Shown: positions 8,440 through 63,921 of the stretch, piece by piece
Layout: each line of letters opens with the position of its first letter
Numbering within the stretch: position 1 is the stretch's first letter
Assembly (NCBI GenBank): GCA_964457455.1
Contig: CAYWJN010000001.1
Coordinates: 5,648-69,647 of the forward strand
Length of the DNA stretch: 64,000 bases
Origin: an uncultured Candidatus Cloacimonadota bacterium
Lineage (GTDB): Bacteria; Cloacimonadota; Cloacimonadia; Cloacimonadales; TCS61
Direction of reading: 5' to 3'
Notes under the pieces: model-generated
Told to the model about the DNA's origin: nothing
What the model saw: the letters and a program-made list of their open reading frames with translations, nothing else
The model's database searches: none
Translations under genes and position numbers: made by a program

Positions 8440-9444
8440 ATGAACTTATTAAAAGTAATTCCCCACTTAGGATTTATAAAGTTGTTGGCATTGTCCGGAT
8501 TTCCCATAAAATCGACTGATGGCATAAAAGGCATAAAAGAGAAGGTCGTGGAGGAGAGTTTTAATAGCATAGATGATAAATATTATGAATATTATATCAA
8601 TGAAATGATGGATGATAAAGCAACAGCAACCATGGTCAAGAAAAATAGGAAAATCCGGGAAGATAATTCCGTGGAAATAGATTCTCTTAAACACAAACCT
8701 ATTATATCTGATCCTAATATATTGGTAAAACACATAAGGGGTGGAGCAGATATAACCACAGCCATGCTAAGTCCATATAGTAGAGAGATAAAAGATGTGA
8801 ACGGATGTGCTAAAAGTGTTTATCATATCTTGAGGTGCAAAAAATTGCGACAATATATTGAAATAAGTATATTGCTGGAAAGATTTAGGGCAGATATTGT
8901 AAAAAATTGGAATCGACATACACAGGAGAATGATTTTAAATTGAGTGAAACAAATCTATACTTTTATCTTTTATATTTCTGGGATGTTGCGAGTGGTTCT
9001 CTTAGAAAAAGAGGGGCAGATATAATGGATATTTATGAATATTTGGTATATGATAAGCAGAATCCTTATTATAGTCCCCACATAGAATTAATGTTCAACC
9101 CTGTGGCGGATGCCCTTTCATATTTTGGGTTAATGAATGAATTTGATAGAATGCAAGACATTAGAGATCTGCGGGGTAAGTCTGGCAGATTGATAAAATC
9201 ACGGTTATCCAAAAAACACCAATCTATAGGTCGTGGTGTGACAGAAATTTTTTCTCATACCGATAGCCAGTTGCAAGAAGATGCATCTAAGGGAGATAGC
9301 GCAGAAAGTTTAAGAGCCGAAATAAGGAGAATGATAGAAAGACTTAAAATAATGCCTCAAGAGAGGAAAACCCTGTATCAATTAAAAGACGAGGTGGTTG
9401 ATACAGGCAATATAGAACAAGATAGCCCCGTCAAAAATAAATAA
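8440..9444 (+). CDS. hypothetical protein
   Basis: 334-aa ORF tightly packed after the previous gene. Confidence 0.65.
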   Translation: MNLLKVIPHLGFIKLLALSGFPIKSTDGIKGIKEKVVEESFNSIDDKYYEYYINEMMDDKATATMVKKNRKIREDNSVEIDSLKHKPIISDPNILVKHIRGGADITTAMLSPYSREIKDVNGCAKSVYHILRCKKLRQYIEISILLERFRADIVKNWNRHTQENDFKLSETNLYFYLLYFWDVASGSLRKRGADIMDIYEYLVYDKQNPYYSPHIELMFNPVADALSYFGLMNEFDRMQDIRDLRGKSGRLIKSRLSKKHQSIGRGVTEIFSHTDSQLQEDASKGDSAESLRAEIRRMIERLKIMPQERKTLYQLKDEVVDTGNIEQDSPVKNK

Positions 9445-10604: not shown

Positions 10605-11672
10605 ATGAAATGCCCTTGTATCATAAAAACATCGGGAATTAGGAGAATAAGTATGCTTCCAACAATAATTAAGATATCTGCAATAGAGAAGTATTCGTCT
10701 CCCAAATGGATCAAGATGATAAGGTCAGGCAAATTAAGTGAGAAGGCATTAAAAATTCTTGCAAATGCTGGATATAAAGATAGGACAATAAAACATCTTG
10801 GAGTGGGAGGAACAAGAGTCTCTGACTTGGTATTTACTAGTAGGGTGGGTAAAGCTGTTAGAAAAATACCTAATATAGAGGGGGTGTCGAAATATTATAT
10901 TCATGAGCCATATAATAGCCAAGCAAAGGAACATTTTGTATGGAATAAAGTGCAAAAATATTTGTCAAAAAAGAAGATAAAGGTTCCTCGATTGATAAAA
11001 CAAGATGGCCCAATAGGATATTATGAGCATGTTAAAGGTAGGAGCGTTGCTAATAAAGCAAAAAAATTATTTAATAAACTAGACGAATATGGAAAGCAGG
11101 GTGATAGAGTTAGGAGAATTCGGGTAAAGAATGCTAAATTAAGGATGTTAAGGATTCTTAATAAATCACCTATAGATGCTAAAACCATGCGAAAAATAAA
11201 AAGAAAATATCCGAGAATATATGATATGACGAATAGAAATCTTGTTGATAGAACGCTAGTAGACTTTGATATTCTAGGACCCCAAACTTATACAATGGAT
11301 AGAGGACCATCCAAGCATTATCGTGATACTTATAAAGCGTTTGCTAATGGAATGCGTACGACTGAAAACTATAAGAAAACGTTTCCTGGATATTTCAGCA
11401 GAAACAAAAATAAAATAATACCCTCCGTTATATTAGGAGGGGCTTTGGTTGCCGCTGGAATTAGAGAAGCAAAAAATAAAGATAAAAATGGAGTGAATCA
11501 AATCAAAAAAAATGCTATGATAAAATTCTCCGGGATGTTATCAGATATTGCCAGTGCTCGCAAAGCAACTAATGCTAATCCGTCAGAAGCACAGATTAAG
11601 GCAGAAAACTATAAAAAAGTGCCCATAAAGGCGAGAAAATTTATTTCAGGAATTATCAGGAAGATAAGATAA
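10605..11672 (+). CDS. leader-tagged protein-kinase-like protein, paralog A
   Basis: Starts MKCPCIIKTS, then a second degenerate leader MLPTIIKISA. Kinase-like motifs are LGVGGTRVSDLV, GKAVRKIP, YDMTNRN and LVDFD. Ends at NPSEAQIKAENYKK, where paralog B continues. Confidence 0.6.
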   Translation: MKCPCIIKTSGIRRISMLPTIIKISAIEKYSSPKWIKMIRSGKLSEKALKILANAGYKDRTIKHLGVGGTRVSDLVFTSRVGKAVRKIPNIEGVSKYYIHEPYNSQAKEHFVWNKVQKYLSKKKIKVPRLIKQDGPIGYYEHVKGRSVANKAKKLFNKLDEYGKQGDRVRRIRVKNAKLRMLRILNKSPIDAKTMRKIKRKYPRIYDMTNRNLVDRTLVDFDILGPQTYTMDRGPSKHYRDTYKAFANGMRTTENYKKTFPGYFSRNKNKIIPSVILGGALVAAGIREAKNKDKNGVNQIKKNAMIKFSGMLSDIASARKATNANPSEAQIKAENYKKVPIKARKFISGIIRKIR

Positions 11673-12819: not shown

Positions 12820-14667
12820 ATGAATTGTCCTGTAATACTGAAGAGAGCTTCTCCAAGATGGGTTAAGATGGTGAGGTCTGGGAAATTAGGAAGAGAGTCG
12901 CTTAAAAGACTGGCGGAAGCTGGGTATAAAGACAGGACGATAAAGCCATTAGGTAGAGGAGCTTTCAGGATCGCCGACCTCGTATTCACAGAAGGTATTG
13001 GAAAAGCTGTTAGAAAAATACCTTTAATAGACAGAAAATCTGCAAGCGATATTATAGGAATATATAAAGCTCAGGCAATGGAGCATAAGGTATGGAATAA
13101 AGCGAGGAAGTTAATGCACAAAAAGGGTATTCCTGTAGCGAAAATGGTAAAGAGAAATAAAGGGATTGGATATTATGAATACATTAAGGGGAGAAAAATT
13201 TCTGATAAAGCGGCAATAATAAAAAAAAATATGGTCCCTAATGAGTATCCAAGAGAGGGGACAGTAGCAGAAAAAATTAGATGGCAAAAAAGAATAATTT
13301 CTATAAACAAGGCAAGAGAAAAAGTTCATAAAATAATTAATGCAAATATAATAAACAAGTCGGACTATAAGAATATTAAAAAAAGGTTTCCTCATCTTAG
13401 AGATACTACCGCTCAAAACACAATAGGAAACACTTTAATAGACTTTGATATTACTAACTATAAGGCATTCCCTACAAACTTGGACATGAAACGTAACATT
13501 AAAAAAGATTCATACAGAGCAATGAGGGAGGCGTTAAATGACAGAATGCCCAATAATATTAAAATAGCAACAATGACCGGAGATATAAATAGGGCTCGAA
13601 AAGATACCAACATTAACCCATCAGATGCCCAAATAAAAGCCGAGAACTACAAAAAAGGGTCATTCAAGTGGAATGGACTGACTATTAAATTGGAGAACCC
13701 AAAGGGATCAACGAGATCCGGAACTGACCCAGATGGTAAATCGTGGTCAATAAAGATGAAATATGATTATGGATACATCTCTAATGCACAGGATGGGAAA
13801 GATGGGGACAAAATTGATGTGTTCATAGGAAGTCATCCAGAAAGTCAGATAGTGTATGTAATTGATCAAGTAGACAAGAACGGTAAATTCGATGAACACA
13901 AGTGTATCCTCGGGGCACTCACTGAAGATGAGGCTAGAAAAACATATCTCGCTAATTATGAGAAGGGATGGAAATGTGGACCGATCACGGCGATGACCGT
14001 AGAGCAATTCAAGGAATGGACTATGAAGGGTAGAACCGGAAGTCCTCTAAATAAACAAAAACTTTTTAAAGTGGGAAAAACAATGAATTGCCCCAGCATT
14101 TTACAAAAAAAGTCTTCCCTAAGGTCTATACTTAAATTAAGACCTTTACTTCGAGAAATAAAGGCGCACAAGATTCCTATAGAGAGGCATTTCATCCCAC
14201 TTAAAAAGATCAATCCCACTCTTAAGAGAATGCTCAATATAGAATATGGGGGAGTCAACTCAGATATTGGGGTAAGAGATTATATTAGATTGCTGCGTGG
14301 CGGGCAATTTCTCAAAGGTAGAGGAAATGATTTATCTATATCTATTCCTAAAGTGAAAAATGTTGCTGTCAGGAAGATCGTCTCTATGCTTCCAAGAAAA
14401 AATGAGCCGGCAGCAGTGTTGTCTCACGAACTGGGGCATGCTGTGAAGAGCAAAAAAGGATTATTGGATATTCTTAAGAAACAAACATATAACCAGAAAT
14501 ATTGGAAGAAGCCTACTGCTATGAACGAGTATTTATCAGAAGCGGAAGCAAGTGCTTTTGGATTGAAGACATTAAATAAAATGAAAGATAAGATTCCATT
14601 AAATATGCCAAAGATAAAGAAAATACTATATAAAAAGTTAAAAATTTATGGGGAGGATTTGTTGTGA
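12820..14667 (+). CDS. leader-tagged multidomain protein: kinase-like + conserved phage/plasmid domain + internal leader + HExxH metallopeptidase-like module
   Basis: Starts MNCPVILKRA. Kinase-like motifs are LGRGAFRIADLV, GKAVRKIP, HLRDTTAQN and LIDFD. The middle domain reads AENYKKGSFKWNGLTIKLENPKGSTRSG...YGYI...DGDKIDVFIG. A second leader MNCPSILQKK lies at 14083. HELGH is at 14425-14439. Confidence 0.65.
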   Translation: MNCPVILKRASPRWVKMVRSGKLGRESLKRLAEAGYKDRTIKPLGRGAFRIADLVFTEGIGKAVRKIPLIDRKSASDIIGIYKAQAMEHKVWNKARKLMHKKGIPVAKMVKRNKGIGYYEYIKGRKISDKAAIIKKNMVPNEYPREGTVAEKIRWQKRIISINKAREKVHKIINANIINKSDYKNIKKRFPHLRDTTAQNTIGNTLIDFDITNYKAFPTNLDMKRNIKKDSYRAMREALNDRMPNNIKIATMTGDINRARKDTNINPSDAQIKAENYKKGSFKWNGLTIKLENPKGSTRSGTDPDGKSWSIKMKYDYGYISNAQDGKDGDKIDVFIGSHPESQIVYVIDQVDKNGKFDEHKCILGALTEDEARKTYLANYEKGWKCGPITAMTVEQFKEWTMKGRTGSPLNKQKLFKVGKTMNCPSILQKKSSLRSILKLRPLLREIKAHKIPIERHFIPLKKINPTLKRMLNIEYGGVNSDIGVRDYIRLLRGGQFLKGRGNDLSISIPKVKNVAVRKIVSMLPRKNEPAAVLSHELGHAVKSKKGLLDILKKQTYNQKYWKKPTAMNEYLSEAEASAFGLKTLNKMKDKIPLNMPKIKKILYKKLKIYGEDLL

Positions 14668-18468: not shown

Positions 18469-21237
18469 ATGTCATTAGATAGTGTTACTGAAGGCAGCTA
18501 TAATACAAGCAGAATCAAGAATTTGGTGTTCAACCTGAACATGGACAGAATAGTTGTCCCCGTTAGAGCGAAGACCTATTATCGCTATGCGGAGTTTTTC
18601 TTTACCCATACAGCGATTGGGACGGCTATACTCAAGAAGGCAAGATTTGCCATCCAGGATATTAAAATCAGAAGTAATAATCCAGAACTTGAGGATAGAG
18701 CCAAAAAGATGATCAGGGTGATTAAATTAAGAGAAAAAATAGTGAAGACATGTCGTGATTATGATATATATGGGATAAGTGCTGTTTTTCCGATGTATGC
18801 TATTGATAAGGTTATTGTGTGTGAAAGTTGTGGAGATACGTATTTGTTAAAAGATCTCACACATACAGGAGACCCAGAATATAAATGGGATAGTTCGGGA
18901 GAAGGATCGATTCAATATAAATGCCGCAACAAAAAGTGTTCTGCCTATGGGAAAAATGCATCCTTTAAGATGAGAGATAGAAAAGATAGTTCAAATTTAA
19001 AAAGAATGTCTATAGCAGTATGGTCACCTAACAATATTGAAGCAGTTTATAATAAAATAACTGACACAAAACAATATAAATTATATATTGATAAAGAAAT
19101 GCGTAATCTGATACGCAGGGGTGATCATTATATTCTTTGTACAACGCCTCAGATATATATAAGAGCGGCATTGAAAAATCGCAGGATAGTCATCAATCCC
19201 AGCAAACTATTTATCTTTGAGGCTCCGACAATGAATATTCAAGGGATGCCAATTCCACCCATGGTAATGGCATTCCAAGATCTCTATACAAGAATGAAGT
19301 ATGTCCAAGCAAACGCTAATGTTGCCGAAGAATTGATGGTTCCGTTCCGGATGCTTTATCCTATTTGGAGAGGTGAATCTGGAGGTCATCTACCAAGGAC
19401 TCAAACTATTAATTCGTTGACTTGGCGACAGAGCGTTCTCTCACAATATAAAAAATGGAAAAAAGATAATAAACATGTAATGGTGATGCCTATTGAAATG
19501 GGCAGTAAAGACTTTTGGGGAGCCGGCAAACTTCTCGTGCTCGGAAGAGAATTGCGCGAGAACATGTCGGACATATTGGCCACAATAGGTGTACCTATTG
19601 AGTTTATATTCGGTGGAGTAACATGGTCACGACAAAATGTATCAGCGATTATTCTCGAAAATACATTTAAACAATTCGGAATGTTAGTCCAGGAATTATT
19701 AGATTTTATAGCCGAGAAAATAAACTCATCGCAGAATGTAAAAGATAAGGTCGAATTGACTTTGGAAATGCCCAGGTTGGTCGAGGCCCTTGCGGAGTCA
19801 ACTTTTCTCGAAAAGGGTATGGTGAACGGAGATATATCTCCGGAATTATATTATAGTCGGTTTGGTGTTGATCTCCGAGCACAAAGATCAAAAATAGAAG
19901 CCACTAAACAGGATAGAATCTATTTCAAAAAAATGCAGAAACGCCTCGAAGCCCAGGGTGAAGTTGAATTCCAAGAAGTATTGTTATCTGGACAGAAGAA
20001 AATAAAAGAAACTGAACGTCGAGAAGCCCTGAAAGATCAGTTATCTATAGCCGCCATTGAATCCGATAAAATGGAGGCCGCTATTGATAAACATAAGAAA
20101 TTGATGAAAATGGATATTGCATCCAAGAAAAAGTTGTTGGATTATCAATTGGATGTTCAGAATAAACGGCGGATTAATGAGATGGATGGTTCTTTAGAAC
20201 ATATGAAGGAAAGTCTCAAAATACAATCTGATCAGCAGTATAGAGATGCAAAACGATCAATGAAATTGGAATTGAATCAGATGGAAGCCATGGGACTCAA
20301 GGGAGATGAGGTTAATTATAAGAGACAGATGGCCGAAGAATACCGTCAATTGATGGAGATTTATAAAAAATTGCCAAAAACTAAACAACTGGAATTGATC
20401 GGCATGAAGTACGATGACAGAAAGAAATGTCTTCAAGAAATTGCTATAGAACAGGAAATGTCGGCCATTAACGACAATCTTGATCCCCAGACTAAACAGG
20501 AATTGTCCCAATTAAGCGAAGAAGAACGCAATAAGCAACTGGAAAATATATATAAGAAGAAAAAGGATGAAGAACAAATAGAGAAAACGGTCACAATGGA
20601 TCCAAACTTGCAGAAAGAACGTATTAAAAGAATGGACGAAGAAAGAGCAGAAGATCAGAGTATAAATTTGTCTGCTACAACCTATAATAGATTAAATCAG
20701 GACGAGAGAGAATATTTTAAACAGCAATTAATGCAGGAATCTTCGGAGAGGTTCGCTAAAGTTAAAGAAACTGCGGATGCTATGGCCACAATGGGCTATG
20801 CAGATAGATTAGCCAATGCAGACGACAATGAAATATCTGATATAGTTGAGGAGATTGAGGCTCACCGTCCAGATATCGCCAAAGATGTAGAAACCGAACT
20901 GGAAAGCCGAATGTTCATTAAGCAACAAGCCGCGGCCTATGCATCCAGGATGATTAAACTCGAAGGAACACCAGAATTCGGCAAGTTTGTAAAGGAAGTT
21001 CAAAAGTTCCCCGATGAGTTTAAGCAGATGATATCCGACAATCTAGATCAATTCATGAAAATTGAAAAGGACAACACCTTGATTAAAACGGGGGAAGACG
21101 ATGTTGCCAAGGAGATGGCTCTACAGATTCAGGAAAGTTATAATGAAACCGACAGGGTAGAAATGCTAAAGCAACTTCGATACATAAATCCCACATTATA
21201 TAAAAAAATAATAGCAAATATGGATTTAGATAAGTAA
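18469..21237 (+). CDS. putative portal protein with long charged coiled-coil C-terminal extension
   Basis: Largest ORF between terL and the protease/capsid genes, so the call is by synteny. About 470 aa are globular and about 450 aa are K/E/Q-rich. A Cys-pair insertion reads CESC...CRNKKC. Confidence 0.4.
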   Translation: MSLDSVTEGSYNTSRIKNLVFNLNMDRIVVPVRAKTYYRYAEFFFTHTAIGTAILKKARFAIQDIKIRSNNPELEDRAKKMIRVIKLREKIVKTCRDYDIYGISAVFPMYAIDKVIVCESCGDTYLLKDLTHTGDPEYKWDSSGEGSIQYKCRNKKCSAYGKNASFKMRDRKDSSNLKRMSIAVWSPNNIEAVYNKITDTKQYKLYIDKEMRNLIRRGDHYILCTTPQIYIRAALKNRRIVINPSKLFIFEAPTMNIQGMPIPPMVMAFQDLYTRMKYVQANANVAEELMVPFRMLYPIWRGESGGHLPRTQTINSLTWRQSVLSQYKKWKKDNKHVMVMPIEMGSKDFWGAGKLLVLGRELRENMSDILATIGVPIEFIFGGVTWSRQNVSAIILENTFKQFGMLVQELLDFIAEKINSSQNVKDKVELTLEMPRLVEALAESTFLEKGMVNGDISPELYYSRFGVDLRAQRSKIEATKQDRIYFKKMQKRLEAQGEVEFQEVLLSGQKKIKETERREALKDQLSIAAIESDKMEAAIDKHKKLMKMDIASKKKLLDYQLDVQNKRRINEMDGSLEHMKESLKIQSDQQYRDAKRSMKLELNQMEAMGLKGDEVNYKRQMAEEYRQLMEIYKKLPKTKQLELIGMKYDDRKKCLQEIAIEQEMSAINDNLDPQTKQELSQLSEEERNKQLENIYKKKKDEEQIEKTVTMDPNLQKERIKRMDEERAEDQSINLSATTYNRLNQDEREYFKQQLMQESSERFAKVKETADAMATMGYADRLANADDNEISDIVEEIEAHRPDIAKDVETELESRMFIKQQAAAYASRMIKLEGTPEFGKFVKEVQKFPDEFKQMISDNLDQFMKIEKDNTLIKTGEDDVAKEMALQIQESYNETDRVEMLKQLRYINPTLYKKIIANMDLDK

Positions 21238-30098: not shown

Positions 30099-31106
30099 AT
30101 GAATATAGATAATACACAATTAATAAAAGAGGCGAACGATATTCTGCAAGACCTTGCGATGAATGGTCGTGAGGCAAAAGATAATTTTATAACGAAATTC
30201 GGAACTTCTCTGGAAAATTACGTCAAGAGATATGTAAGGGAAGAGGCTTTCTCTGAGAAACTCTTGGTCAATAAAACCATGTCACCGAAGGATCCGGGTA
30301 TTCAAGAGACCGAAGATGCTGATGTATTTTACGTACTTGACAAGAAGGAAATCGGAGCAACCGCTGCCGAGGTCTCTATAAGAGGTGATACCCAACCCAT
30401 TTTCGTAGACACAAAAAAATATAAGATATGGATCGGCAAAATTGAAACAGAACGGCACAAAAAACCATGGCTGGAACTTGAAACATCTTCTGCTTCCGAT
30501 CTTGTTGATATGGTAACGAAAAATGGTGCCGAAGCAATAAGGCGAACTCAAGATTTAGGCTTTATCAAGAATGTTGCTTCCATATTGACAATTACGGGTA
30601 ATCATGTTGGTGGAGACACCACAGTATATACTGATACTATCGATTGGACAAATAGTGGTAGAAAAAAAGATCTTACGAACCTAATGTCCTATATCACACG
30701 ACAAGGACTTGTGCCTGCTAAATGGTTGATGTCTCAGACTGCATGGAATGATATGCTTGCATTTGATGCTGGTGAAGTTGGTAATCTTGCTGGAGAGACT
30801 TTTAAAAACGGTATAGCGCAGAAAGTCCTGCTGGATATTCCTGTCATTACAACCATAAAGGCAGACCTTAAAAATGATGATGAAACTATTTACTATTTTG
30901 ATAAAGAAGGTGATAGCGGCGAGCTCTATACAGATATCTATTTGTTTGTAGATCCATCTTATTTGGGTAAAAACATCAAAATTGGAAGCGATAAATCTGA
31001 TTCCAAATGGGAATGGGATGATTTCATCTGGGGTGCATGGAGATATACCGGTCACGGATTTGGCGACACTCGTGGTATCTGTAGGATGAGAATCCGAATT
31101 AAATAA
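30099..31106 (+). CDS. putative major capsid protein
   Basis: 335-aa ORF with a strong AAAGGAG SD, following the protease and scaffold-like genes and preceding a strong terminator region. The N-terminus carries LIKEA at 30120-30134. Confidence 0.55.
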   Translation: MNIDNTQLIKEANDILQDLAMNGREAKDNFITKFGTSLENYVKRYVREEAFSEKLLVNKTMSPKDPGIQETEDADVFYVLDKKEIGATAAEVSIRGDTQPIFVDTKKYKIWIGKIETERHKKPWLELETSSASDLVDMVTKNGAEAIRRTQDLGFIKNVASILTITGNHVGGDTTVYTDTIDWTNSGRKKDLTNLMSYITRQGLVPAKWLMSQTAWNDMLAFDAGEVGNLAGETFKNGIAQKVLLDIPVITTIKADLKNDDETIYYFDKEGDSGELYTDIYLFVDPSYLGKNIKIGSDKSDSKWEWDDFIWGAWRYTGHGFGDTRGICRMRIRIK

Positions 31107-31119
31107 TTGGGAATAGAGA

Positions 31120-31713
31120 ATGTTTCGCATACTCAATATAACGCGTAAAAATCCGCATATTAAGTCCTATGAGAATGTAACAATAATGGACGGGGAACAT
31201 AAACTTGTTGTCCGTCCTAAAAAGGTTACTGTTATTAGTGATGAGGTTCATGAACATTACAAGGGAATGATGACCGATACCACGGATAAAAGTGAATGGA
31301 CCGTCGACACCAAATTCTATGCTGTCAAAATCATATCTGTCTCGGGATTAACTATTTCGAACGATGAGGAAGAGACAATAGAAGATAAGGTTGAAGAAGG
31401 CTCAAAGAAACCGGATGAACCTGAACTCAAAGGGAGCGAAGAAGGTGAAGGGATTACTAATAAGGCTGAAGATGGTGATATTTCCGAGAAAAAAGAATTA
31501 ATATTGAAACAGGAAGAGGTAGCCAAAAAAGAAATAAAGGGCGATGAAATCACCAATAAAAAGGAAGGGCCAAAACCGTTGAACCGTGCCAAGATCATGG
31601 AAAATTTGGATGCTTATAATGAAACTCGTGATACTGATGAAAAAGTTACTTATCGCAAAAAGGACACCCTTGACACTCTGCAAAAACTTTGGGGTGGCCT
31701 GAATAAAGAATAA
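31120..31713 (+). CDS. acidic head-associated protein
   Basis: 197-aa ORF whose C-terminal two thirds are E/K/D-rich. Contains the 30-nt exact repeat at 31336-31365. Confidence 0.55.
   Translation: MFRILNITRKNPHIKSYENVTIMDGEHKLVVRPKKVTVISDEVHEHYKGMMTDTTDKSEWTVDTKFYAVKIISVSGLTISNDEEETIEDKVEEGSKKPDEPELKGSEEGEGITNKAEDGDISEKKELILKQEEVAKKEIKGDEITNKKEGPKPLNRAKIMENLDAYNETRDTDEKVTYRKKDTLDTLQKLWGGLNKE
31336..31365 (+). repeat. 30-nt exact direct repeat, copy 1 (partner 48879-48908)
   Basis: TCTGTCTCGGGATTAACTATTTCGAACGAT is identical at both sites. Both copies are codon-aligned and encode SVSGLTISND. Confidence 0.9.
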
Positions 31714-40182: not shown

Positions 40183-41118
40183 ATGGAAATATTATTCACT
40201 GATGGAGAGACAAGAAATTATCCGCGGGCAGTAATATCGGTGGGTAGATCAAATTCATCTGATTTTATATTAACATCGGTAACCCAGAAAAGATCTGAAC
40301 AAATTGCGGTCAATCATCATTATGATGATTATAAAATAGGCATTAAAAATAAGATCATAGAGCCATATAAATTTAGTGGGATTGTGATTGACACAAAAAA
40401 TACTACATGGGAGACGCAATTTATTGAGAATTATAAAAACCTCTGGAGAGCCAGCGTATGTTTGGGGTCTCAGGATAAGTCTGCACAAAGGAAGGATACA
40501 TATGTATCAGTCGTATATAAAGGCATTCAGATAAATGGTTATATGGTTGATATGTCTATCATGTCAAACAATACAGGTTTATCTTATTTTTCGTTTACTC
40601 TGATTCCCTTGGGGAATCCGGTGGAGAACTTGGCTGGCGAAATAGATTATATTGATAAGGCTGATATATCTAATGTTCAAAGAGAGGATAATAAGGCATC
40701 TATATTTATGAGTAATAAGCCCATAGAAGAACAACCAATGAGAGAGTTCTCTCTACAATCGATCAATAAATACTTCTTGGAAAAATATCAATTCACAGGT
40801 GTATATGGGGGGATTACTAGTTTTGGGAGTTATCCCGATACCTATATTTTTGGTTTAATATTACCGGATACAAAAGAGAGCGTAATAGTAGAAGGTGTTG
40901 AATATTCATGGAAGCACCTATTTAATAAATATTATCGCGAAAAATGGAGTGTAAAGAATTTATATAGGGATCAGAAAGTGCATATTGTATATAAAAACAG
41001 GGTGGCCACGGGTTATATTATGAGTTTAACGGATAATGTGAAGGCCGGGGAAACATTCTCAAGAGTAGAACTACGAATGTTGGTAAAAAGTGATTATGCT
41101 GACATGGGGGGGCATTAA
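40183..41118 (+). CDS. distal tail or baseplate protein
   Basis: Position is after the tape measure gene. Contains the 26-nt exact repeat at 40463-40488. Confidence 0.5.
   Translation: MEILFTDGETRNYPRAVISVGRSNSSDFILTSVTQKRSEQIAVNHHYDDYKIGIKNKIIEPYKFSGIVIDTKNTTWETQFIENYKNLWRASVCLGSQDKSAQRKDTYVSVVYKGIQINGYMVDMSIMSNNTGLSYFSFTLIPLGNPVENLAGEIDYIDKADISNVQREDNKASIFMSNKPIEEQPMREFSLQSINKYFLEKYQFTGVYGGITSFGSYPDTYIFGLILPDTKESVIVEGVEYSWKHLFNKYYREKWSVKNLYRDQKVHIVYKNRVATGYIMSLTDNVKAGETFSRVELRMLVKSDYADMGGH
40463..40488 (+). repeat. 26-nt exact direct repeat, copy 1 (partner 62943-62968)
   Basis: TGGGGTCTCAGGATAAGTCTGCACAA is identical at both sites and in the same codon phase. Both copies encode GSQDKSAQ. 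Confidence 0.9.
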
Positions 41119-43058
41119 TGAGAGGTGTTGATCTGAATACCGTTTGCTACTTGGAGGGAATAAAGGTCCCAATGATGAAAATAAGTATATCCATGCATGA
41201 GAATAATCTGTGTGTAGCCACAATTACCTTGCCCCAAGTGGGGAAACTGTCGGAGATCAAGGACGGTACAATCATAACGGTATTCTATTACGATTGTGAT
41301 TCAGAGGTCTACCGATTATTATTTGACGGTGTAACCACGGGTGTTACCTATAATAGGCAAAGAGACCTTAGGACGAGATCTATATTAGCCGTTGGACAGA
41401 ATAAATATCTGAACGATCTGCCATCTCAATATTTATCCGCTCTTGAGTTCGAGAATTTTTTTCAATTAGTTGGTTCATATGAATTTTATGGTATGGATGA
41501 TGCAAATATGGGGACAACCGTGATAAACAACGCTATAAAAAATGCTTTTCAGATATTTAATCTCGGAGATCCTGTTAAACTTAATGTTGTTGATTATTTT
41601 GATAAAGTTTTATCCCTATTAAAGGATTCGTGGGAATATTATTATAAAAATATCAACAAGAGACTGAAAATTAGTCGCGATCATGTTTATGTTGATGAAG
41701 ATTTGTTTAAAGAATTTTATAGGGCGGAGGGGTTGACCAACTTTCTGGAATCTACCAATATGGATGTCATATTGAACAATGAAACACCATTGGATGGTAT
41801 TTTGAGAAAACTAATGCATGTGGGATACCGCTATATCAACATTGGTTGTCCCGCCTATAATGATAAGGGAGTGGAGAAAATACTGTCTGGGCTAAAAATC
41901 CAAACAAATGATAAATCGATGGCTAAATATGTATTGCTGCCCGATATATTAAATGTCGCTCCTCCCAAATGTAATGTCTTTATTGCCGGTGATGATGTAG
42001 AATTGTTAAATGACAATATCCGGAGCACCCCCATAACGCGACTACGCCATGTCTATAAAATATTCGATAATAATCTTTTCAGTCGAGAATCGCCCGGGGA
42101 TTTAAAGGAAAATAAGTATAATCTGACAGATGAAGAATATGAATTTGGGATACGGGGAGCAATTGAGATAAAGAGTTATCTGTTTAATAGAATAATTGGA
42201 GAAGACATTCTAAAACCTGAAGAAATTGCTGAACAACAAAGCAATATTGTTTGGCAAAACCTCTGTGATTATGAATTTATGAAAAAACGATATTCACAGA
42301 ACATCCTGCAATGTTCATTTCCAGAATTACACCCCTATGGAGTAGTGGGATTTCCGAGCATTGTCTATGATGTACCACAGGATGCTGTTTATTATGGAAT
42401 ATTATCCAGCGTAAATATAATGATAGATCAGTCTGCGGGAAAAACCGGGACACAAATTGAGATGACTAATGTCAGAAAAATAACCAGTCTGACAGATATC
42501 GGTTTGATCAATCCATTTCTGGAGAGGGAAGTATTTACAAATATTAATAAGATATACGATTATTGCTACAATCCTATTCTTACTGGTTCTAAAGGGGTTG
42601 CAGCCAAAGTAGTTGAAAGCGAATATTCTCCCGGTATTTTGGGAATGATAGGTTATATTCCCATAACAGAACATTCGAATGATCTAAAACTACTAAAAAG
42701 GAGAAAACGCGAAAAAAGAACTGGCTCCGAGGTAGTAAACAGCGTTAATGCTATAAAAACAAATCATCAAGATTTATTTAAAAAAGATGGGTATTGTAAA
42801 CGAGAAATCATTACATTTGGAGAATATTTGTATTCAAGAGGACTGATAACACGAGATAATACCCCTAAGAGTATATATGAATTGAAATATAAGAAAATTA
42901 TACCCGATATGGCATCAGAAGTTACAGATCAAGTGAAAACGTTAGAAGAGCATGGAACAACTGTCGTGCCAGATGGGACGGTATTTATAACGGAGAGGCG
43001 AGATAAAATCCTGGAATTACTAGAAGAATATGGAGACGATATATTGCCAAGGAGATAA
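41118..43058 (+). CDS. baseplate hub-like protein (positional)
   Basis: 646-aa ORF with an ATGA-type overlap with the previous gene. Confidence 0.45.
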   Translation: MRGVDLNTVCYLEGIKVPMMKISISMHENNLCVATITLPQVGKLSEIKDGTIITVFYYDCDSEVYRLLFDGVTTGVTYNRQRDLRTRSILAVGQNKYLNDLPSQYLSALEFENFFQLVGSYEFYGMDDANMGTTVINNAIKNAFQIFNLGDPVKLNVVDYFDKVLSLLKDSWEYYYKNINKRLKISRDHVYVDEDLFKEFYRAEGLTNFLESTNMDVILNNETPLDGILRKLMHVGYRYINIGCPAYNDKGVEKILSGLKIQTNDKSMAKYVLLPDILNVAPPKCNVFIAGDDVELLNDNIRSTPITRLRHVYKIFDNNLFSRESPGDLKENKYNLTDEEYEFGIRGAIEIKSYLFNRIIGEDILKPEEIAEQQSNIVWQNLCDYEFMKKRYSQNILQCSFPELHPYGVVGFPSIVYDVPQDAVYYGILSSVNIMIDQSAGKTGTQIEMTNVRKITSLTDIGLINPFLEREVFTNINKIYDYCYNPILTGSKGVAAKVVESEYSPGILGMIGYIPITEHSNDLKLLKRRKREKRTGSEVVNSVNAIKTNHQDLFKKDGYCKREIITFGEYLYSRGLITRDNTPKSIYELKYKKIIPDMASEVTDQVKTLEEHGTTVVPDGTVFITERRDKILELLEEYGDDILPRR

Positions 43059-43059
43059 T

Positions 43060-43701
43060 ATGGAATATAATGATGTCCTAAAGAAATATCAACCTTTAAT
43101 TAATTCAACTGTCAATAGATTTTCTGGGAGCACAATACCTAAAAACCTGTTAAGATTGCAGGCGGAAATATTAGTCGGAGAAGCTCTCAATACTTTTGAT
43201 CCCCAAAAAGGTCCATTGGCTAACCATGTGAGCAATTATATGAAATCGATGAATAGGTTTGTGAATGAAGCGAGTCCTATATATATTCCTGAAGAAAGAT
43301 CGCAGAAATTTGGCAAATTCACATCCGAGGTGGCTACCTTTGAGGAGAAGGTCGGACGAAAGCCAACCTACGAGGAAATGGCTGACAGATTAAAGATGGG
43401 TATTGGCGACATAAAAAGATTATCAGAGGAAACTGGCAGAAAATTAACATCAGATATCTCTTTTGCAGACAATATCACAATGGCTTTTGATCCCACATTC
43501 AATGAAAAAAACTTCTTGGATATGGTTTATAATAAACTTGAGAATTCTGACGAAAAGAAAATATTGGCACTAACTTATGGGATACACGGATATCCAAGAT
43601 TGTCAACTAATGAGCAGATTGCTCAACGGGTAGGGGTGTCAGAATCTACAATAAGGCGGAAAAAAGATAACATTATTACAGTAATGAGGAAATTGAAATA
43701 A
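43060..43701 (+). CDS. sigma-70 family (group 4-like) sigma factor
   Basis: Track ORF is 43030-43701. ATG 43060 follows AAGGAG. The region 2-like block reads YQPLINSTVNRF...LLRLQAEILVGEALNTFDP. The C-terminal HTH reads NEQIAQRVGVSESTIRRKKDNIITVMRKL. Confidence 0.65.
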   Translation: MEYNDVLKKYQPLINSTVNRFSGSTIPKNLLRLQAEILVGEALNTFDPQKGPLANHVSNYMKSMNRFVNEASPIYIPEERSQKFGKFTSEVATFEEKVGRKPTYEEMADRLKMGIGDIKRLSEETGRKLTSDISFADNITMAFDPTFNEKNFLDMVYNKLENSDEKKILALTYGIHGYPRLSTNEQIAQRVGVSESTIRRKKDNIITVMRKLK

Positions 43702-45652: not shown

Positions 45653-46044
45653 TTGACTTAAAAATATTAGACAATATAGGTTCTCAGGATTCCGAAACAT
45701 GTTTTGATATAATAAACAATGGTCCCCGGGCAACCGGTAAAGTCTCTGTGTCACAGAGGTTTTGTAGATTATTATATGGAAGTGATTGTGGGGGCTTATT
45801 AGATGCCTATAAAACCATAAAGTTATCAAATAAAAATGTTGGGTTAATGCATAATACCATTATATCAGCGTTGAGTAAAACCTCAGAGAAAATGCTTAAG
45901 TTACAAGAAAATGAAGAACTCCTGGCAACTGAGACATTTGTAAGGGCAAAGTTAAAAAATCTTGACATAATTATCACCAATGGTCAGGTGAATATGAGTA
46001 TTGAGTTGGTCACCCTCGATGGTGTCCAACAATTAGAATTATAG
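45649..46044 (+). CDS. baseplate wedge protein, gp25/W-like (tentative)
   Basis: 131 aa, immediately upstream of a J-like ORF. The C-terminal pattern NGQVNMSIELVTLDG fits my recollection of the family. Confidence 0.4.
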   Translation: MIDLKILDNIGSQDSETCFDIINNGPRATGKVSVSQRFCRLLYGSDCGGLLDAYKTIKLSNKNVGLMHNTIISALSKTSEKMLKLQENEELLATETFVRAKLKNLDIIITNGQVNMSIELVTLDGVQQLEL

Positions 46045-47771: not shown

Positions 47772-49718
47772 ATGGCACAATTCGTAGAAGATGTGGTAAA
47801 TCAGAGTTTACCAGTATCCCCAACGGGGGATACTCCGTCTGCTGTTAATCCAACTACCAATATCGCTCTCCGTTTTGATGTTTCAAAGTTCTTGGAAGAA
47901 TATAGCAGCGGAGATGATATTCCTGTTGAAACTTATAACCCAATATGTCAGAAAAAGTTGAGTTCAGAATTGCAGAAAAATATTGAGATAACGGGGAAGT
48001 TTAGAACCGATTATGATCCTGTTGAAAGCGGGAGCCATGGCGGATATAGTTATATTACTGTGAGAAAACCATCTTCCGGGAAGGCAGATGCCATTAGCGG
48101 ATACGGAATAGTATGGAGACCTTCATCCTACGATGCAGAAAGTCTTGAATTAACGGGAACAGTCTCTGGAACAACAATAACACTAAATCCTGGGGACGGA
48201 GTACACCTGGGTACCAACACAGTAGCATTTATATCTAATGTTATTGGGAATAAAATCTATTATGTTCCGTTTGAGTTTACCCGAGACACAGATATTTTGA
48301 CAGATTGTGTGTTTCCGGAAAATATCACACCATCAGGAGAAGTAACCATACTCGTTTGTGAACCCAATATCTTCATTGTTGATAATGATCTGGTGAATGC
48401 TGATATGTATGTCAATAAAGTGATGGAATTCCCCGGTAATACATTAGCATACATAGTGTCTGGAATAACCAAGATTGAAAAAAATACTGATTATTATTTC
48501 AAAATGCAAATAAGCGAAGATAATGCGATCGATTTCTATTTGGAAGAAACAGAAGAAGCCCTTGAGGAAGCAACGGCAAAAATAAGTTGTGGGGCGAGAA
48601 CTCCCTTATCAGAATATCTTGCCACCTCTAATATGGATGCCTTCGGAATATCAACGGTTGATACGGCTGGGTATAAATGGTATTATGATAACATTCAGAT
48701 AAGAAGATTGGCGGGAGAATATGCTGTCAACTATTTTGAATTCGATATCAGCACCTTGGCGGACATGATCCAACTCTACATCAAAGGATATGGTTCCGGA
48801 TATGGGGGAGATGGATTAAAAATGTATGTATGGGATCCATCTCAAGAAGTATGGGAACAAATAGCAGAAAATACATTTTCTGTCTCGGGATTAACTATTT
48901 CGAACGATATTGATACAGAGTATTATGCGACAGATAATACTATTAAAATAAAAGTACAAACATCCTATCCCTCGGGATTAACAACAGAGGCGGCAATTTC
49001 TCTGGATTATATAGATGTTCGGAGTTCATACAATAGTGGGGTCAATATAGGTGGATGTGTGGACGTTTATATTGATGATGAATATCTCAAAAGCGATACG
49101 GTGGATGTGGAACCGGATTTATCTGACTACATTAACGTGATAGATTTTAGCAATAGAGTGCCAGTATGGATTGATAAAATAATTATCAAAGATAGTAGTC
49201 CAGAGATTGAATTGACGGAGGGGATTGACTATATATGGGAACACAATGACAATAATTATGAAAGATCTGTACGGGGACAGAGTATTATAAAATTTAATCC
49301 CGCAATCTCAAGTGAGGTGAGAATAACTTATTATTATAGTTCCCTGGTTAAAAATGTGCAAAATTGGGTCAATGAGCCACATATTCATTATAAGGGGCAG
49401 GATATTTTGGTCAGGCATAAAAATATTCATCTATTGTCCATTGTTGCTACAACTGGCGATAACACTATTTTGTCCACCATAAAAGGCCATATTGAGGATT
49501 ATGTTAATACCTTAACATCAAAGGATGGGGAGGTATCCCTAACATATGAAGGAATTAAAGAATATTTATATCTACAGGGGGTAAGAGAACTATCCTATTT
49601 GGTCGTTACCGATAATTATAGGGAAAACGGCGTGAAGACAAAAGAAATTATCAATGTTCCCGGAGATGTAATAACTATTAATAAAACGGCTATATTTAGA
49701 TTAGAAGGTAGAATATAA
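47772..49718 (+). CDS. baseplate or tail fibre-associated protein
   Basis: 648-aa ORF after the J-like gene. Contains copy 2 of the 30-nt repeat. Confidence 0.5.
   Translation: MAQFVEDVVNQSLPVSPTGDTPSAVNPTTNIALRFDVSKFLEEYSSGDDIPVETYNPICQKKLSSELQKNIEITGKFRTDYDPVESGSHGGYSYITVRKPSSGKADAISGYGIVWRPSSYDAESLELTGTVSGTTITLNPGDGVHLGTNTVAFISNVIGNKIYYVPFEFTRDTDILTDCVFPENITPSGEVTILVCEPNIFIVDNDLVNADMYVNKVMEFPGNTLAYIVSGITKIEKNTDYYFKMQISEDNAIDFYLEETEEALEEATAKISCGARTPLSEYLATSNMDAFGISTVDTAGYKWYYDNIQIRRLAGEYAVNYFEFDISTLADMIQLYIKGYGSGYGGDGLKMYVWDPSQEVWEQIAENTFSVSGLTISNDIDTEYYATDNTIKIKVQTSYPSGLTTEAAISLDYIDVRSSYNSGVNIGGCVDVYIDDEYLKSDTVDVEPDLSDYINVIDFSNRVPVWIDKIIIKDSSPEIELTEGIDYIWEHNDNNYERSVRGQSIIKFNPAISSEVRITYYYSSLVKNVQNWVNEPHIHYKGQDILVRHKNIHLLSIVATTGDNTILSTIKGHIEDYVNTLTSKDGEVSLTYEGIKEYLYLQGVRELSYLVVTDNYRENGVKTKEIINVPGDVITINKTAIFRLEGRI
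48879..48908 (+). repeat. 30-nt exact direct repeat, copy 2
   Basis: Identical to 31336-31365. Confidence 0.9.
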
Positions 49719-62075: not shown

Positions 62076-62819
62076 ATGAATAACAGTAGAGAATCAACAG
62101 CAAAACAATTAGCAGATATAAATGCTGATATTATAAGAGAATTACAAGAAAGAATAGCCAAAGAACGCGGGCAATTCGAGCAAATAATGGACTGTGTATC
62201 GCATCCATCATATATCGCGAGTATACAGTCCGACAAAATATTATTTGAAAATGCTTCTTTGAAAAAATTGATGAAAAAAAGTGTGCTTGGGGAAAAATGT
62301 TGTAAAGCATTACAAGGGCTTGATTATAAATACACATTCCGCAATACTGAGACAGTACAGCTAAATATCCTCCCTGCATTGGAGAAAAAAAATCTAACGA
62401 ATAATAGGTGGTACAGATATCATGCTACTTTAATCGATTGGCATGGAGAGAGGGCAAAATTTGTTTTAGCCATCGATATTCATGAAAAGAAGCATACAGA
62501 AGCACTGTTGAGGGCAATTGTAGGTTACTCGCCATATGGAATTGCCGTAACATATCCAGATGGTGGAATATATATGATCAACGATAGGTTCGCGAAGAAA
62601 TTTGGCTATACAAAAGAGAAAATGTTAAATATGAATACGCGTCAATTTTATCTTTATCCAGAACAAGGGAGGGTTTACCTTGAACAGCATAAAAATGACA
62701 CCTTTCAATATACAACTGACTATGTTGATAAAGAAGGTAAACAAATAACCCTCACTCTTGAAAGTAGACGCGTTGAAAATGGAGACCTTAAGTTTATAAA
62801 CTATATAGTAAATGAATAG
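62076..62819 (+). CDS. tandem PAS-domain protein without output domain
   Basis: The second half, LLRAIVGYSPYGIAVTYPDGGIYMINDRFAKKFGYTKEKMLNMNTRQFY, is a typical PAS N-terminal pattern. The first half, FEQIMDCVSHPSYIASIQSDKILFENASLKKLM, is similar. Confidence 0.55.
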   Translation: MNNSRESTAKQLADINADIIRELQERIAKERGQFEQIMDCVSHPSYIASIQSDKILFENASLKKLMKKSVLGEKCCKALQGLDYKYTFRNTETVQLNILPALEKKNLTNNRWYRYHATLIDWHGERAKFVLAIDIHEKKHTEALLRAIVGYSPYGIAVTYPDGGIYMINDRFAKKFGYTKEKMLNMNTRQFYLYPEQGRVYLEQHKNDTFQYTTDYVDKEGKQITLTLESRRVENGDLKFINYIVNE

Positions 62820-62836
62820 AGATAAGGAAAACACAT

Positions 62837-63238
62837 ATGAACCAGGATGAACGAAGGTTAATATTATTAGAGTGTTTAAAAAAAACGAAAACGGAACTTG
62901 ATACTGACAAAAAAGAGATTATGGGTTTATTAATGAAGATAATGGGGTCTCAGGATAAGTCTGCACAATGGAGGATAGATACAGGAAAGATCGTTGATAG
63001 TAATCTTTTGCGGATTGGGACAATAGAAAAAGAATATGTGCCACGGGACAAAATCGAAAGTATGATAAGCAAATTCAAAGAACCTCTAAGCGAGGATAAA
63101 ATAGAAACAATGATAAATGATAAATTTGACCAGAAAGATAAATCAGAAAGCAGGAAAGAATATAATACAATAGCCAAAATAGCGATTATTATATCAGCAT
63201 TAACTTTCGTGGTAATGATTATAACTCTTATATTATGA
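62837..63238 (+). CDS. tail-anchored membrane protein
   Basis: C-terminal TM segment IAKIAIIISALTFVVMIITLIL. Contains copy 2 of the 26-nt repeat. Confidence 0.55.
   Translation: MNQDERRLILLECLKKTKTELDTDKKEIMGLLMKIMGSQDKSAQWRIDTGKIVDSNLLRIGTIEKEYVPRDKIESMISKFKEPLSEDKIETMINDKFDQKDKSESRKEYNTIAKIAIIISALTFVVMIITLIL
62943..62968 (+). repeat. 26-nt exact direct repeat, copy 2
   Basis: Identical to 40463-40488. Confidence 0.9.
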
Positions 63239-63681: not shown

Positions 63682-63921
63682 ATGAGTAAGAAGGGTTATA
63701 TCTTCATTGTCATAGCTATATTGGTGGCCATGGCTTTGATCGCAACTGTAGAAACGGGGTTCATGGATGTTGTTGTGTTGAATCCAGATTCTGCAGAACT
63801 CGAAGAGGCATTCGTTCTTTACGAAGGTAAAACCGGAAAGGATCGTAATGACATGTCTTACTATGATATCGCAAACTATGTTTCAATGATAAGGGAATTC
63901 CAAACAAAGGAGGAAAAATGA
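63682..63921 (+). CDS. small N-terminally anchored protein
   Basis: Hydrophobic N-terminus YIFIVIAILVAMALIATV. AAAGGAGG SD upstream. Confidence 0.55.
   Translation: MSKKGYIFIVIAILVAMALIATVETGFMDVVVLNPDSAELEEAFVLYEGKTGKDRNDMSYYDIANYVSMIREFQTKEEK

Follow-up and report, generated by a model that had tools for sequence, protein, structure and literature searches.

How two otherwise unrelated genes of one phage came to share 26 identical nucleotides is the question raised by this locus. The window, the 64-kb stretch of DNA that was analyzed, contains two exact copies of the 26-mer TGGGGTCTCAGGATAAGTCTGCACAA, one at 40463-40488 and the other at 62943-62968, on the plus strand in both cases and 22.5 kb apart. 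Each copy is internal to an open reading frame (ORF), and the codon frame is common to both, being read as L-GSQDKSAQ-R in the 311-aa product of ORF 40183-41118 and as M-GSQDKSAQ-W in the 133-aa product of ORF 62837-63238. A sequence-only reading of the window had reported a direct repeat of one orientation and codon phase at these positions, and indeed all 26 of 26 nucleotides agree at both coordinates. The same reading held that the rest of the two proteins is dissimilar, and BLASTP of the 311-aa protein against the 133-aa protein found no similarity outside GSQDKSAQ. Moreover, all synonymous positions are identical, and the reading was right to place the cause at the level of DNA rather than in convergence on a protein motif.

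Chance and composition account poorly for a repeat of this length. In null sequences generated by Markov models of order 1, 3, and 5 and by codon shuffling within genes (60 replicates each), the longest exact direct repeat measured 15 to 22 nt and averaged about 17 nt. Thus, a repeat of 26 nt is not explained by composition, and the concern that many such repeats would be expected from composition, which the sequence-only reading had raised against itself, did not hold. That reading had also proposed an exhaustive scan for exact repeats, and when run on the window, the scan confirmed the 26-mer and showed that it is not the sole outlier, as a 30-mer stood out as well. The next longest repeats measured 21, 19, 19, and 18 nt, and those of 21 nt or less were A-rich strings or reflected homology between paralogues (10605-11672 and 12820-14667). 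No further match to the 26-mer was found within the 64-kb window when up to three mismatches were allowed, and no third copy was found when the loci that span the 10 kb to the left and to the right of the window were searched with up to five. In all, the search for copies took in about 84 kb of a genome that measures at least 134.6 kb. In 100 kb of phage T4, long exact repeats measured 22 to 47 nt, and each was either a regulatory cassette between genes or a start region that paralogous genes have in common; no isolated exact repeat inside genes comparable to the 26-mer was found there. The base rate of such isolated intragenic repeats may be low. Two features that might have united the 26-mer and the 30-mer were rejected. 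A shared core, GTCTCRGGAT(T)AA, with BsaI- and BsmAI-like sites, was estimated to lie at about chance level. A frameshift or slippery site was set aside, as the two repeats share no heptamer and their out-of-frame stops fall in different frames.

An exact repeat might also be produced by assembly or sequencing error at a shared k-mer, as the sequence-only reading had allowed. The 26-mer, however, is present at both sites in ENA assemblies ERZ23498668, ERZ23498660, and ERZ23498639, in JGI assemblies 3300007510 and 3300013119, and in Logan SRR8062346. The contigs concerned are colinear with the window in the flanks and 99.9 to 100% identical to it, and both ORFs that host the 26-mer remain intact in the other assemblies. 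Because several samples and assemblers reproduce both sites, an artifact is effectively refuted, and we give it next to no weight. Isolated repeats of about 25 to 30 nt in metagenomic phage contigs can be genuine and need not be assembly errors. The longest contig on record for this phage is 134,618 bp. The population is nearly clonal: the cluster at 90% identity has one member, no insertion-free variant of the 311-aa gene was found in the 90%-identity clusters, and the eight-residue insert described below is fixed across all the contigs sampled.

The phage to which the window belongs is uncultured and very divergent. When both regions were compared by blastn in distant mode with 50,697 phage records, no match was found. 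Among the few matches to Pfam and PHROG families in the window are a sigma-70-like gene at 43030-43701, a terminase ATPase, and, weakly, a major head protein at 30099-31106. The sequence-only reading had the repeats bracket essentially the whole baseplate and fiber module, a designation that is at best putative, as the genes between the two 26-mer copies are almost without family matches, one of them being sigma-factor-like. Just downstream of the window lie genes for a multisubunit RNA polymerase, with a LAGLIDADG ORF between the pieces of beta-prime. Two syntenic relatives, L018 and L022, lack the 26-mer and keep gene order across the site. The 311-aa gene was 46% identical to its counterpart in L018 and 36% to that in L022, and for the 646-aa gene the values were 53% and 37%; the 865-aa gene was compared with L022 only (36%), its counterpart in L018 being broken by a run of N. 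Nothing like the 26-mer or the 30-mer was found in the loci fetched from relatives, where at most 18 positions matched. The sequence-only reading had suggested a search of related phages, and an exact search for the 26-mer in viral, metagenome, and genome collections (185,579 species' genomes) gave no match; the source contigs are evidently not part of these collections.

Which copy is derived was decided by the homologues of the 311-aa protein. A word-indexed protein search with this protein returned only itself, and neither Pfam nor PHROG gave a match, whereas an exhaustive HMMER search found 19 remote homologues. In an alignment of 13 sequences, all 12 aligned homologues (21 to 47% identity), those of L018 and L022 among them, have a gap of eight residues exactly at GSQDKSAQ. 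Because every one of the 12 lacks precisely those residues, the copy at 40463-40488 is derived and, as judged from the alignment, is a lineage-specific 24-nt in-frame insertion at 40465-40488. The 26-nt identity consists of the 24-nt insert and a TG that precedes it at both loci. The gap lies within the best-conserved motif of the family, WRASxC[LM]/R (the slash marks the gap), in which S91 and C93 are nearly invariant, and it falls between the C93-[LMI] pair and the next R or K. For example, the window reads WRASVCL-GSQDKSAQ-RKDTYVSVVYKG where homologue P0006 reads WKASQCM-RENTYITISYKN. At the level of DNA, L018 has TGT ATG/AGG and L022 has TGT ATG/CGG, and the window has TGT TTG-(GGG TCT CAG GAT AAG TCT GCA CAA)-AGG. 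The uninterrupted ancestral site in the 311-aa gene reads …TGTWTGAGGAAGGATACA…. Among 17 orthologue sets compared with L018 and L022, GSQDKSAQ is the longest internal insertion specific to the window. Moreover, a near-exact match at another place in the window was found only for the GSQDKSAQ and 30-mer sites (28/30 and 34/42, flanks included), and the best matches of other window-specific inserts are at background level. A candidate for a third, older graft, IGSQ at 45676 (14/18 against the 26-mer region), proved to be merely a two-residue difference in length in a variable N terminus.

What the insertion does to the 311-aa protein was considered on a structural model. AlphaFold2, run on the alignment of 13 sequences, predicted two tandem halves, each with a tail-tube fold (mean pLDDT, 78; pTM, 0.79). 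Foldseek matched the model to the T5 tail tip chains 7qg9_G (E value, 5.5e-8) and 7qg9_A, to the DT57C baseplate chain 8hqz_L and the DT57C tube, and to other tail-tube proteins. The gene at 40183-41118 (plus strand) thus appears to encode a duplicated tail-tube fold resembling the rings of tail tips and baseplates. The sequence-only reading had called it a baseplate gene, which is roughly right insofar as the nearest folds are the tail-tip and baseplate ring proteins of T5 and DT57C, though neither Pfam nor PHROG supports the name. In the model, the insert comprises residues 95 to 102 and occupies the loop that joins a helix (residues 90 to 94) to a strand (residues 108 to 112). Residues 97 to 102 have a pLDDT below 50 and form one of only two segments modeled with confidence that low. 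Plausibly, the loop at the insertion site can tolerate added residues.

Where the inserted sequence came from is suggested by the other copy. The gene at 62837-63238 (plus strand), whose 133-aa product has a hydrophobic segment at its C terminus, IAKIAIIISALTFVVMIITLIL, carries the exact match at 62943-62968, the probable template. A word-indexed search of 5.8 billion proteins with the 133-aa protein found only itself, neither Pfam nor PHROG gave a match, and a search for related loci with the 311-aa, 133-aa, and 485-aa proteins found nothing. The protein contains six DK dipeptides where about 1.5 are expected, and PRDKIESM, SEDKIETM, QKDKSESR, and SQDKSAQW place them in similar contexts. This enrichment hints that the copy is native here, as the GSQDKSAQ motif looks at home in a DK-rich protein. 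We infer that copying ran from 62943 to 40463, and the simplest history would be a single event in which 62945-62968 was copied into the 311-aa gene.

The junctions bear directly on how such copying might have happened. To the right of the insert, the recipient sequence AGGAAGGATACA (40489-40500, plus strand; R-K-D-T) matches the donor-side sequence AGGATAGATACA (62972-62983, plus strand) at 10 of 12 positions. When 20,000 random pairs of sites were scored likewise, 0.13% did as well, an empirical P value of about 0.0013. The right flank is native to the 311-aa gene, because L018 has AGG GAG AAT ACC (R-E-N-T) at the same place. We read the match as a preexisting chance microhomology that drew the two loci together. 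To the left, just 2 nt (TG) are identical, and the scores of the left flanks fall at the very low end of the null distribution. The sequence-only reading had described the flanks as unrelated save for a loose GGA(A)GGATA, a description that stands on the left; on the right, GGA(A)GGATA is the zero-offset form of the 10/12 similarity. The donor side of that match begins 3 nt downstream of the repeat, such that the two flanks pair only with a 3-nt offset or a 1-nt bulge, and no simple single-register switch gives the exact junction. The enzymatic route would be either a template switch or the repair of a break on an ectopic template.

We conclude that the repeat is probably the scar of a microhomology-associated templated insertion, that is, of ectopic short-patch copying, and that no function is indicated. 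In an ancestor of this phage lineage, DNA synthesis, whether in replication or in the repair of a break, would have been under way in the tail-tube-like gene. Synthesis would then have shifted to the small membrane-protein gene 22.5 kb off, on the same or a sister molecule, with the aid of the chance 10/12 match between the right flanks. There, 24 nt would have been copied before synthesis returned at the 2-nt match TG. The insert may have been tolerated and fixed because its length is a multiple of three, because it is free of stop codons in frame, and because it falls in a loop predicted with low confidence. That the copies are still identical would mean that the event is young compared with the pace at which the sequence changes, not that the copies have a joint function. 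Several observations speak against this reading: the left junction shares only TG, the right-flank match fits no single register, the 133-aa protein has no known homologue, the insert interrupts the family's best-conserved motif, two such events with orientation and frame kept are more than neutrality requires, and 100 kb of T4 contains nothing comparable.

The 30-mer appears to tell a similar story. The sequence TCTGTCTCGGGATTAACTATTTCGAACGAT occurs at 31336 and at 48879, identical at 30 of 30 positions, direct, and in frame (SVSGLTISND), in genes for proteins of 197 and 648 aa that are otherwise unrelated. In the 648-aa gene, the orthologues are ungapped across the 30-mer, with STASLSISND in L018 and SSLALTISKN in L022 opposite SVSGLTISND, and the DNA of this copy differs from that of the relatives by ordinary orthologous divergence; the 648-aa protein is 65% identical to its L018 orthologue. 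Because the orthologues of L018 and L022 align there without gaps, the copy at 48879-48908 (plus strand) is native and would be the template. In the 197-aa gene, which lies downstream of the capsid-like gene, the homology to relatives stops just before the 30-mer, and the linker of L018 and L022 is shorter and unrelated. Thus, the copy at 31336-31365 (plus strand), in a variable linker, is the derived one, at a site less clean than that of the 26-mer. A supposed 175-aa variant of the 197-aa protein was merely another start call. No microhomology above the null was found in the flanks of the 30-mer, and an exact search for the 30-mer in a viral contig collection, which evidently lacks the source contigs, gave no match. 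The 30-mer pair behaves similarly, and we propose that it arose by another templated insertion, independent of the first.

Whether the repeat instead marks a functional element of DNA or RNA, such as a recombination site, a module boundary, the target of an enzyme or guide RNA, or a pairing site for a regulatory RNA, was the concern of most of the explanations in the sequence-only reading. Exact identity and direct orientation would suit such an element, as would a co-oriented block of genes that includes tail and capsid-like genes and in which family matches are very scarce, and just beyond the window there is a gene for a LAGLIDADG endonuclease. The 26-mer is missing from every homologue, however, and the relatives are syntenic across the site. 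An exchange of modules is poorly served by copies inside ORFs and by L018 and L022, which lack the sequence, are colinear, and resemble the window to a comparable degree to the left and right of the site. When all 69 ORFs of the window were compared with Pfam, no integrase, invertase, transposase, recombinase, reverse transcriptase, or TnpB-type family was found, and the genes called in the 10-kb flanks included no recombinase family. With neither a recombinase, a reverse transcriptase, nor TnpB in the window and no third copy within about 84 kb, an enzyme or guide-RNA target is unsupported. As read from the sequence, the 26-mer has no dyad or internal inverted symmetry. The window contains no Rfam family and no tRNA, and no promoter-like or terminator-like site was found at either copy. 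The two pairs of repeats interleave (31336 < 40463 < 48879 < 62943) and differ in sequence, unlike nested excisable units. Finally, a deletion between the 26-mers would cost about 22 kb and 15 genes, eight of which encode proteins of 485 to 1,131 aa. We consider a functional element very improbable, and no explanation offered in the sequence-only reading found support.

Two further explanations keep the copying and change its cause or its source. The eight-residue loop might have been fixed as advantageous, for example, by disrupting a DNA or protein feature recognized by a host defense or by adding an interaction shared with the membrane protein. The insert lies where a neutral insertion is unexpected and is fixed in all sampled contigs, and a neutral process does not need two events within 64 kb that each kept the direct orientation and the donor frame. 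Each repeat, however, has a stop codon in one of its three frames, as read from the sequence, such that the donor frame would be kept by chance about 1 time in 2 per event. Orientation is likewise 1 in 2 per event, and the joint chance for both pairs is about 1 in 16. As a sign of selection, the coincidence is suggestive at most. Moreover, the loop is modeled at low confidence, the peptide contains no known motif, neither protein matches Pfam or PHROG, and the population has no variation in which selection could show. Thus weighed, a selected graft seems unlikely. Slightly less credible is a third source for both copies, either in the remaining 50 kb or so of the genome or in foreign DNA, in which case neither copy in the window was the template. 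The lack of homologues for the 133-aa protein would fit a third source, as would the extent of the search, about 84 kb of at least 134.6 kb. A third source requires two insertion events instead of one, however, and the significant flank match ties the loci at 40463 and 62943 directly. The collections searched hold no exact match to the 26-mer, and for the 30-mer pair, one copy in the window is demonstrably native.

Templated insertion is thus the reading that we carry forward, and what it would mean is modest. A striking repeat that seems to bracket a host-range module would be a mutational footprint, not a site of recombination or targeting. Its value would lie in being a clear case, found in nature, of templated insertion over a distance in a phage genome, with homologues to tell which copy is derived. 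The contrast between two events in 64 kb here and none in 100 kb of T4 may bear on the share of such micrografts in the evolution of phage structural proteins. We speculate, with considerable doubt, that this phage lineage is prone to grafting short in-frame peptide-coding patches, through template switching or the repair of breaks, between genes of the co-oriented block, and that at least one graft, the eight-residue loop of the tail-tube-like protein, was perhaps selected, for example, as an escape from host defense acting at a DNA or protein site. If so, shuffling on the scale of peptides would be a source of variation in structural proteins.

How the 26-mer compares with known repeats of phages is instructive. 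Shuffling of phage modules has been proposed to proceed by way of repeated T4-type cassettes of promoters and stem-loops and by way of the boundary sequences of lambdoid phages. Like these, the 26-mer is a short exact repeat dispersed in a phage genome, but they are intergenic or sit where genes begin, and related phages have them too, whereas the 26-mer is intragenic, occurs only twice, and is found in no relative. The crossover sites of Hin, Gin, and Cin are 26 bp long, inverted, and dyad symmetric, lie beside a serine-recombinase gene, and switch tail-fiber genes. The length of 26 bp and the nearness to tail genes are shared; the copies here, in contrast, are direct and without dyad symmetry, there is no recombinase in the window, and the relatives lack the site. 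More generally, att, hix, gix, cix, and shufflon sites differ from a sequence that has no recombinase in the window or its 10-kb flanks and is not conserved in relatives. A diversity-generating retroelement needs a reverse transcriptase, repeats of at least about 100 nt, and adenine-specific differences, whereas here there is no reverse transcriptase in the window, the repeat is 26 nt, and there are no differences. Finally, unlike the protospacer of a CRISPR or other guide RNA, the 26-mer has no third or array copy within the window or its 10-kb flanks.

The closer likeness is to mutations made by copying. In the rII region of T4, mutations are templated by quasipalindromes or imperfect repeats. 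In template-switch mutations of Escherichia coli and T4, as would be the case here, the nascent strand copies an ectopic or misaligned template, returns, and leaves a perfect repeat. Their templates, however, are nearby and inverted or quasipalindromic and change few bases, whereas a distant direct template would here have given a net insertion of 24 nt. Closer still are the insertions of MMBIR-type or synthesis-dependent repair, in which a short tract is copied to a new site, with microhomology at the junctions or close by and with no change to the donor. Two hallmarks of templated insertion were found here, as the tract is identical elsewhere in the genome (26/26 for the first pair and 30/30 for the second) and is absent from homologues at the recipient site. 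The MMBIR-type insertions described in PMC8421209 and PMC11724301 come from yeast and human cancer cells, whereas the present one comes from an uncultured phage, its template would be 22.5 kb away, and its junction is not a clean single-register switch. Template switching at microhomology is, according to those two papers, an established mutational process that yields templated insertions, and template switching in bacterial replication is treated in PMC6357072. The 26-mer insertion is, in that sense, a fresh instance of a type of mutation already known.

Besides the 26-nt repeat, the window has a second exact direct repeat, 30 nt long and isolated, at 31336-31365 and 48879-48908, where it is read in frame as SVSGLTISND. 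The genes that carry it are unrelated, one encoding 197 aa and the other 648 aa. Orthologues indicate that the copy at 48879 is native, and the copy at 31336 falls within a variable linker. The counterpart of the 197-aa gene in L022, a syntenic relative of the window, is found after the capsid gene and contains tandem 15-nt repeats (L022 1188-1340) coding for AP(V/E)EE-type units. Moreover, L022 has a 98-nt exact direct repeat (19855-19952 and 20055-20152), the copies of which are 200 nt apart. Finally, the window has a 21-nt exact repeat (10851 and 13003), which is explained by the paralogy of the genes in which it resides, 10605-11672 and 12820-14667. Several peptides (AQIKAENYKK, AGYKDRTIK, and GKAVRKIP) are common to the two genes, even though the DNA has diverged.

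A 14-nt perfect palindrome, GATACATATGTATC (40495-40508), begins 6 nt 3' of the 26-nt repeat copy in the tail-tube-like gene and overlaps the microhomology that flanks that copy. Separately, in two samples, contigs terminate or begin at approximately 8625-8636 of the window (scaffold_2979 and scaffold_837, both of ERZ23498668, and Ga0171656_1007540), which suggests that this site is either variable or hard to assemble.

Genes resembling those for the beta and beta-prime subunits of multisubunit RNA polymerase lie on the minus strand approximately 0.1 to 8.5 kb past the 3' end of the window (10421-18780 of L009, a locus that extends beyond that end). Between the Rpb1_2 and Rpb1_5 pieces is a LAGLIDADG_3 ORF of 335 to 358 aa, one gene call for which overlaps the upstream RNA polymerase piece. 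The ORF could be an intein; alternatively, it could be a homing endonuclease that stands alone. A sigma-70-like gene with regions 3 and 4 (43030-43701) sits downstream of the tail-tube-like gene amid large genes of unknown function, and its position is kept in both syntenic relatives, L018 and L022. Directly upstream of the 133-aa gene, a PAS-domain protein is encoded at 62076-62819 (C-terminal PAS_9; E = 1.3e-7), and such a domain is unusual for a phage block that otherwise contains tail and capsid-like genes.

Short motifs also recur. Three copies of the motif (T)AAAACCGGAAAGGAG(AAAA) are present (489-507, 2735-2754, and 63828-63842), of which the one at 2736 immediately precedes the ATG located at 2757. 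The motif may be regulatory or an extended form of a ribosome-binding site. At the protein level, an N-terminal decapeptide, M(K/N/R)CPxI(I/V)K(E)A, is common to at least eight ORFs of the window (starts at 10605, 11712, 12820, 14664, 14954, 24125, 24649, 25141, and 25281). A ribosome-binding site lies ahead of most of the ORFs, which range widely in length, from 31 to 615 aa. The decapeptide may be a common leader or targeting signal. Internal proteins of phage T4 carry a capsid-targeting sequence, to which the decapeptide, if it is such a signal, would be comparable.
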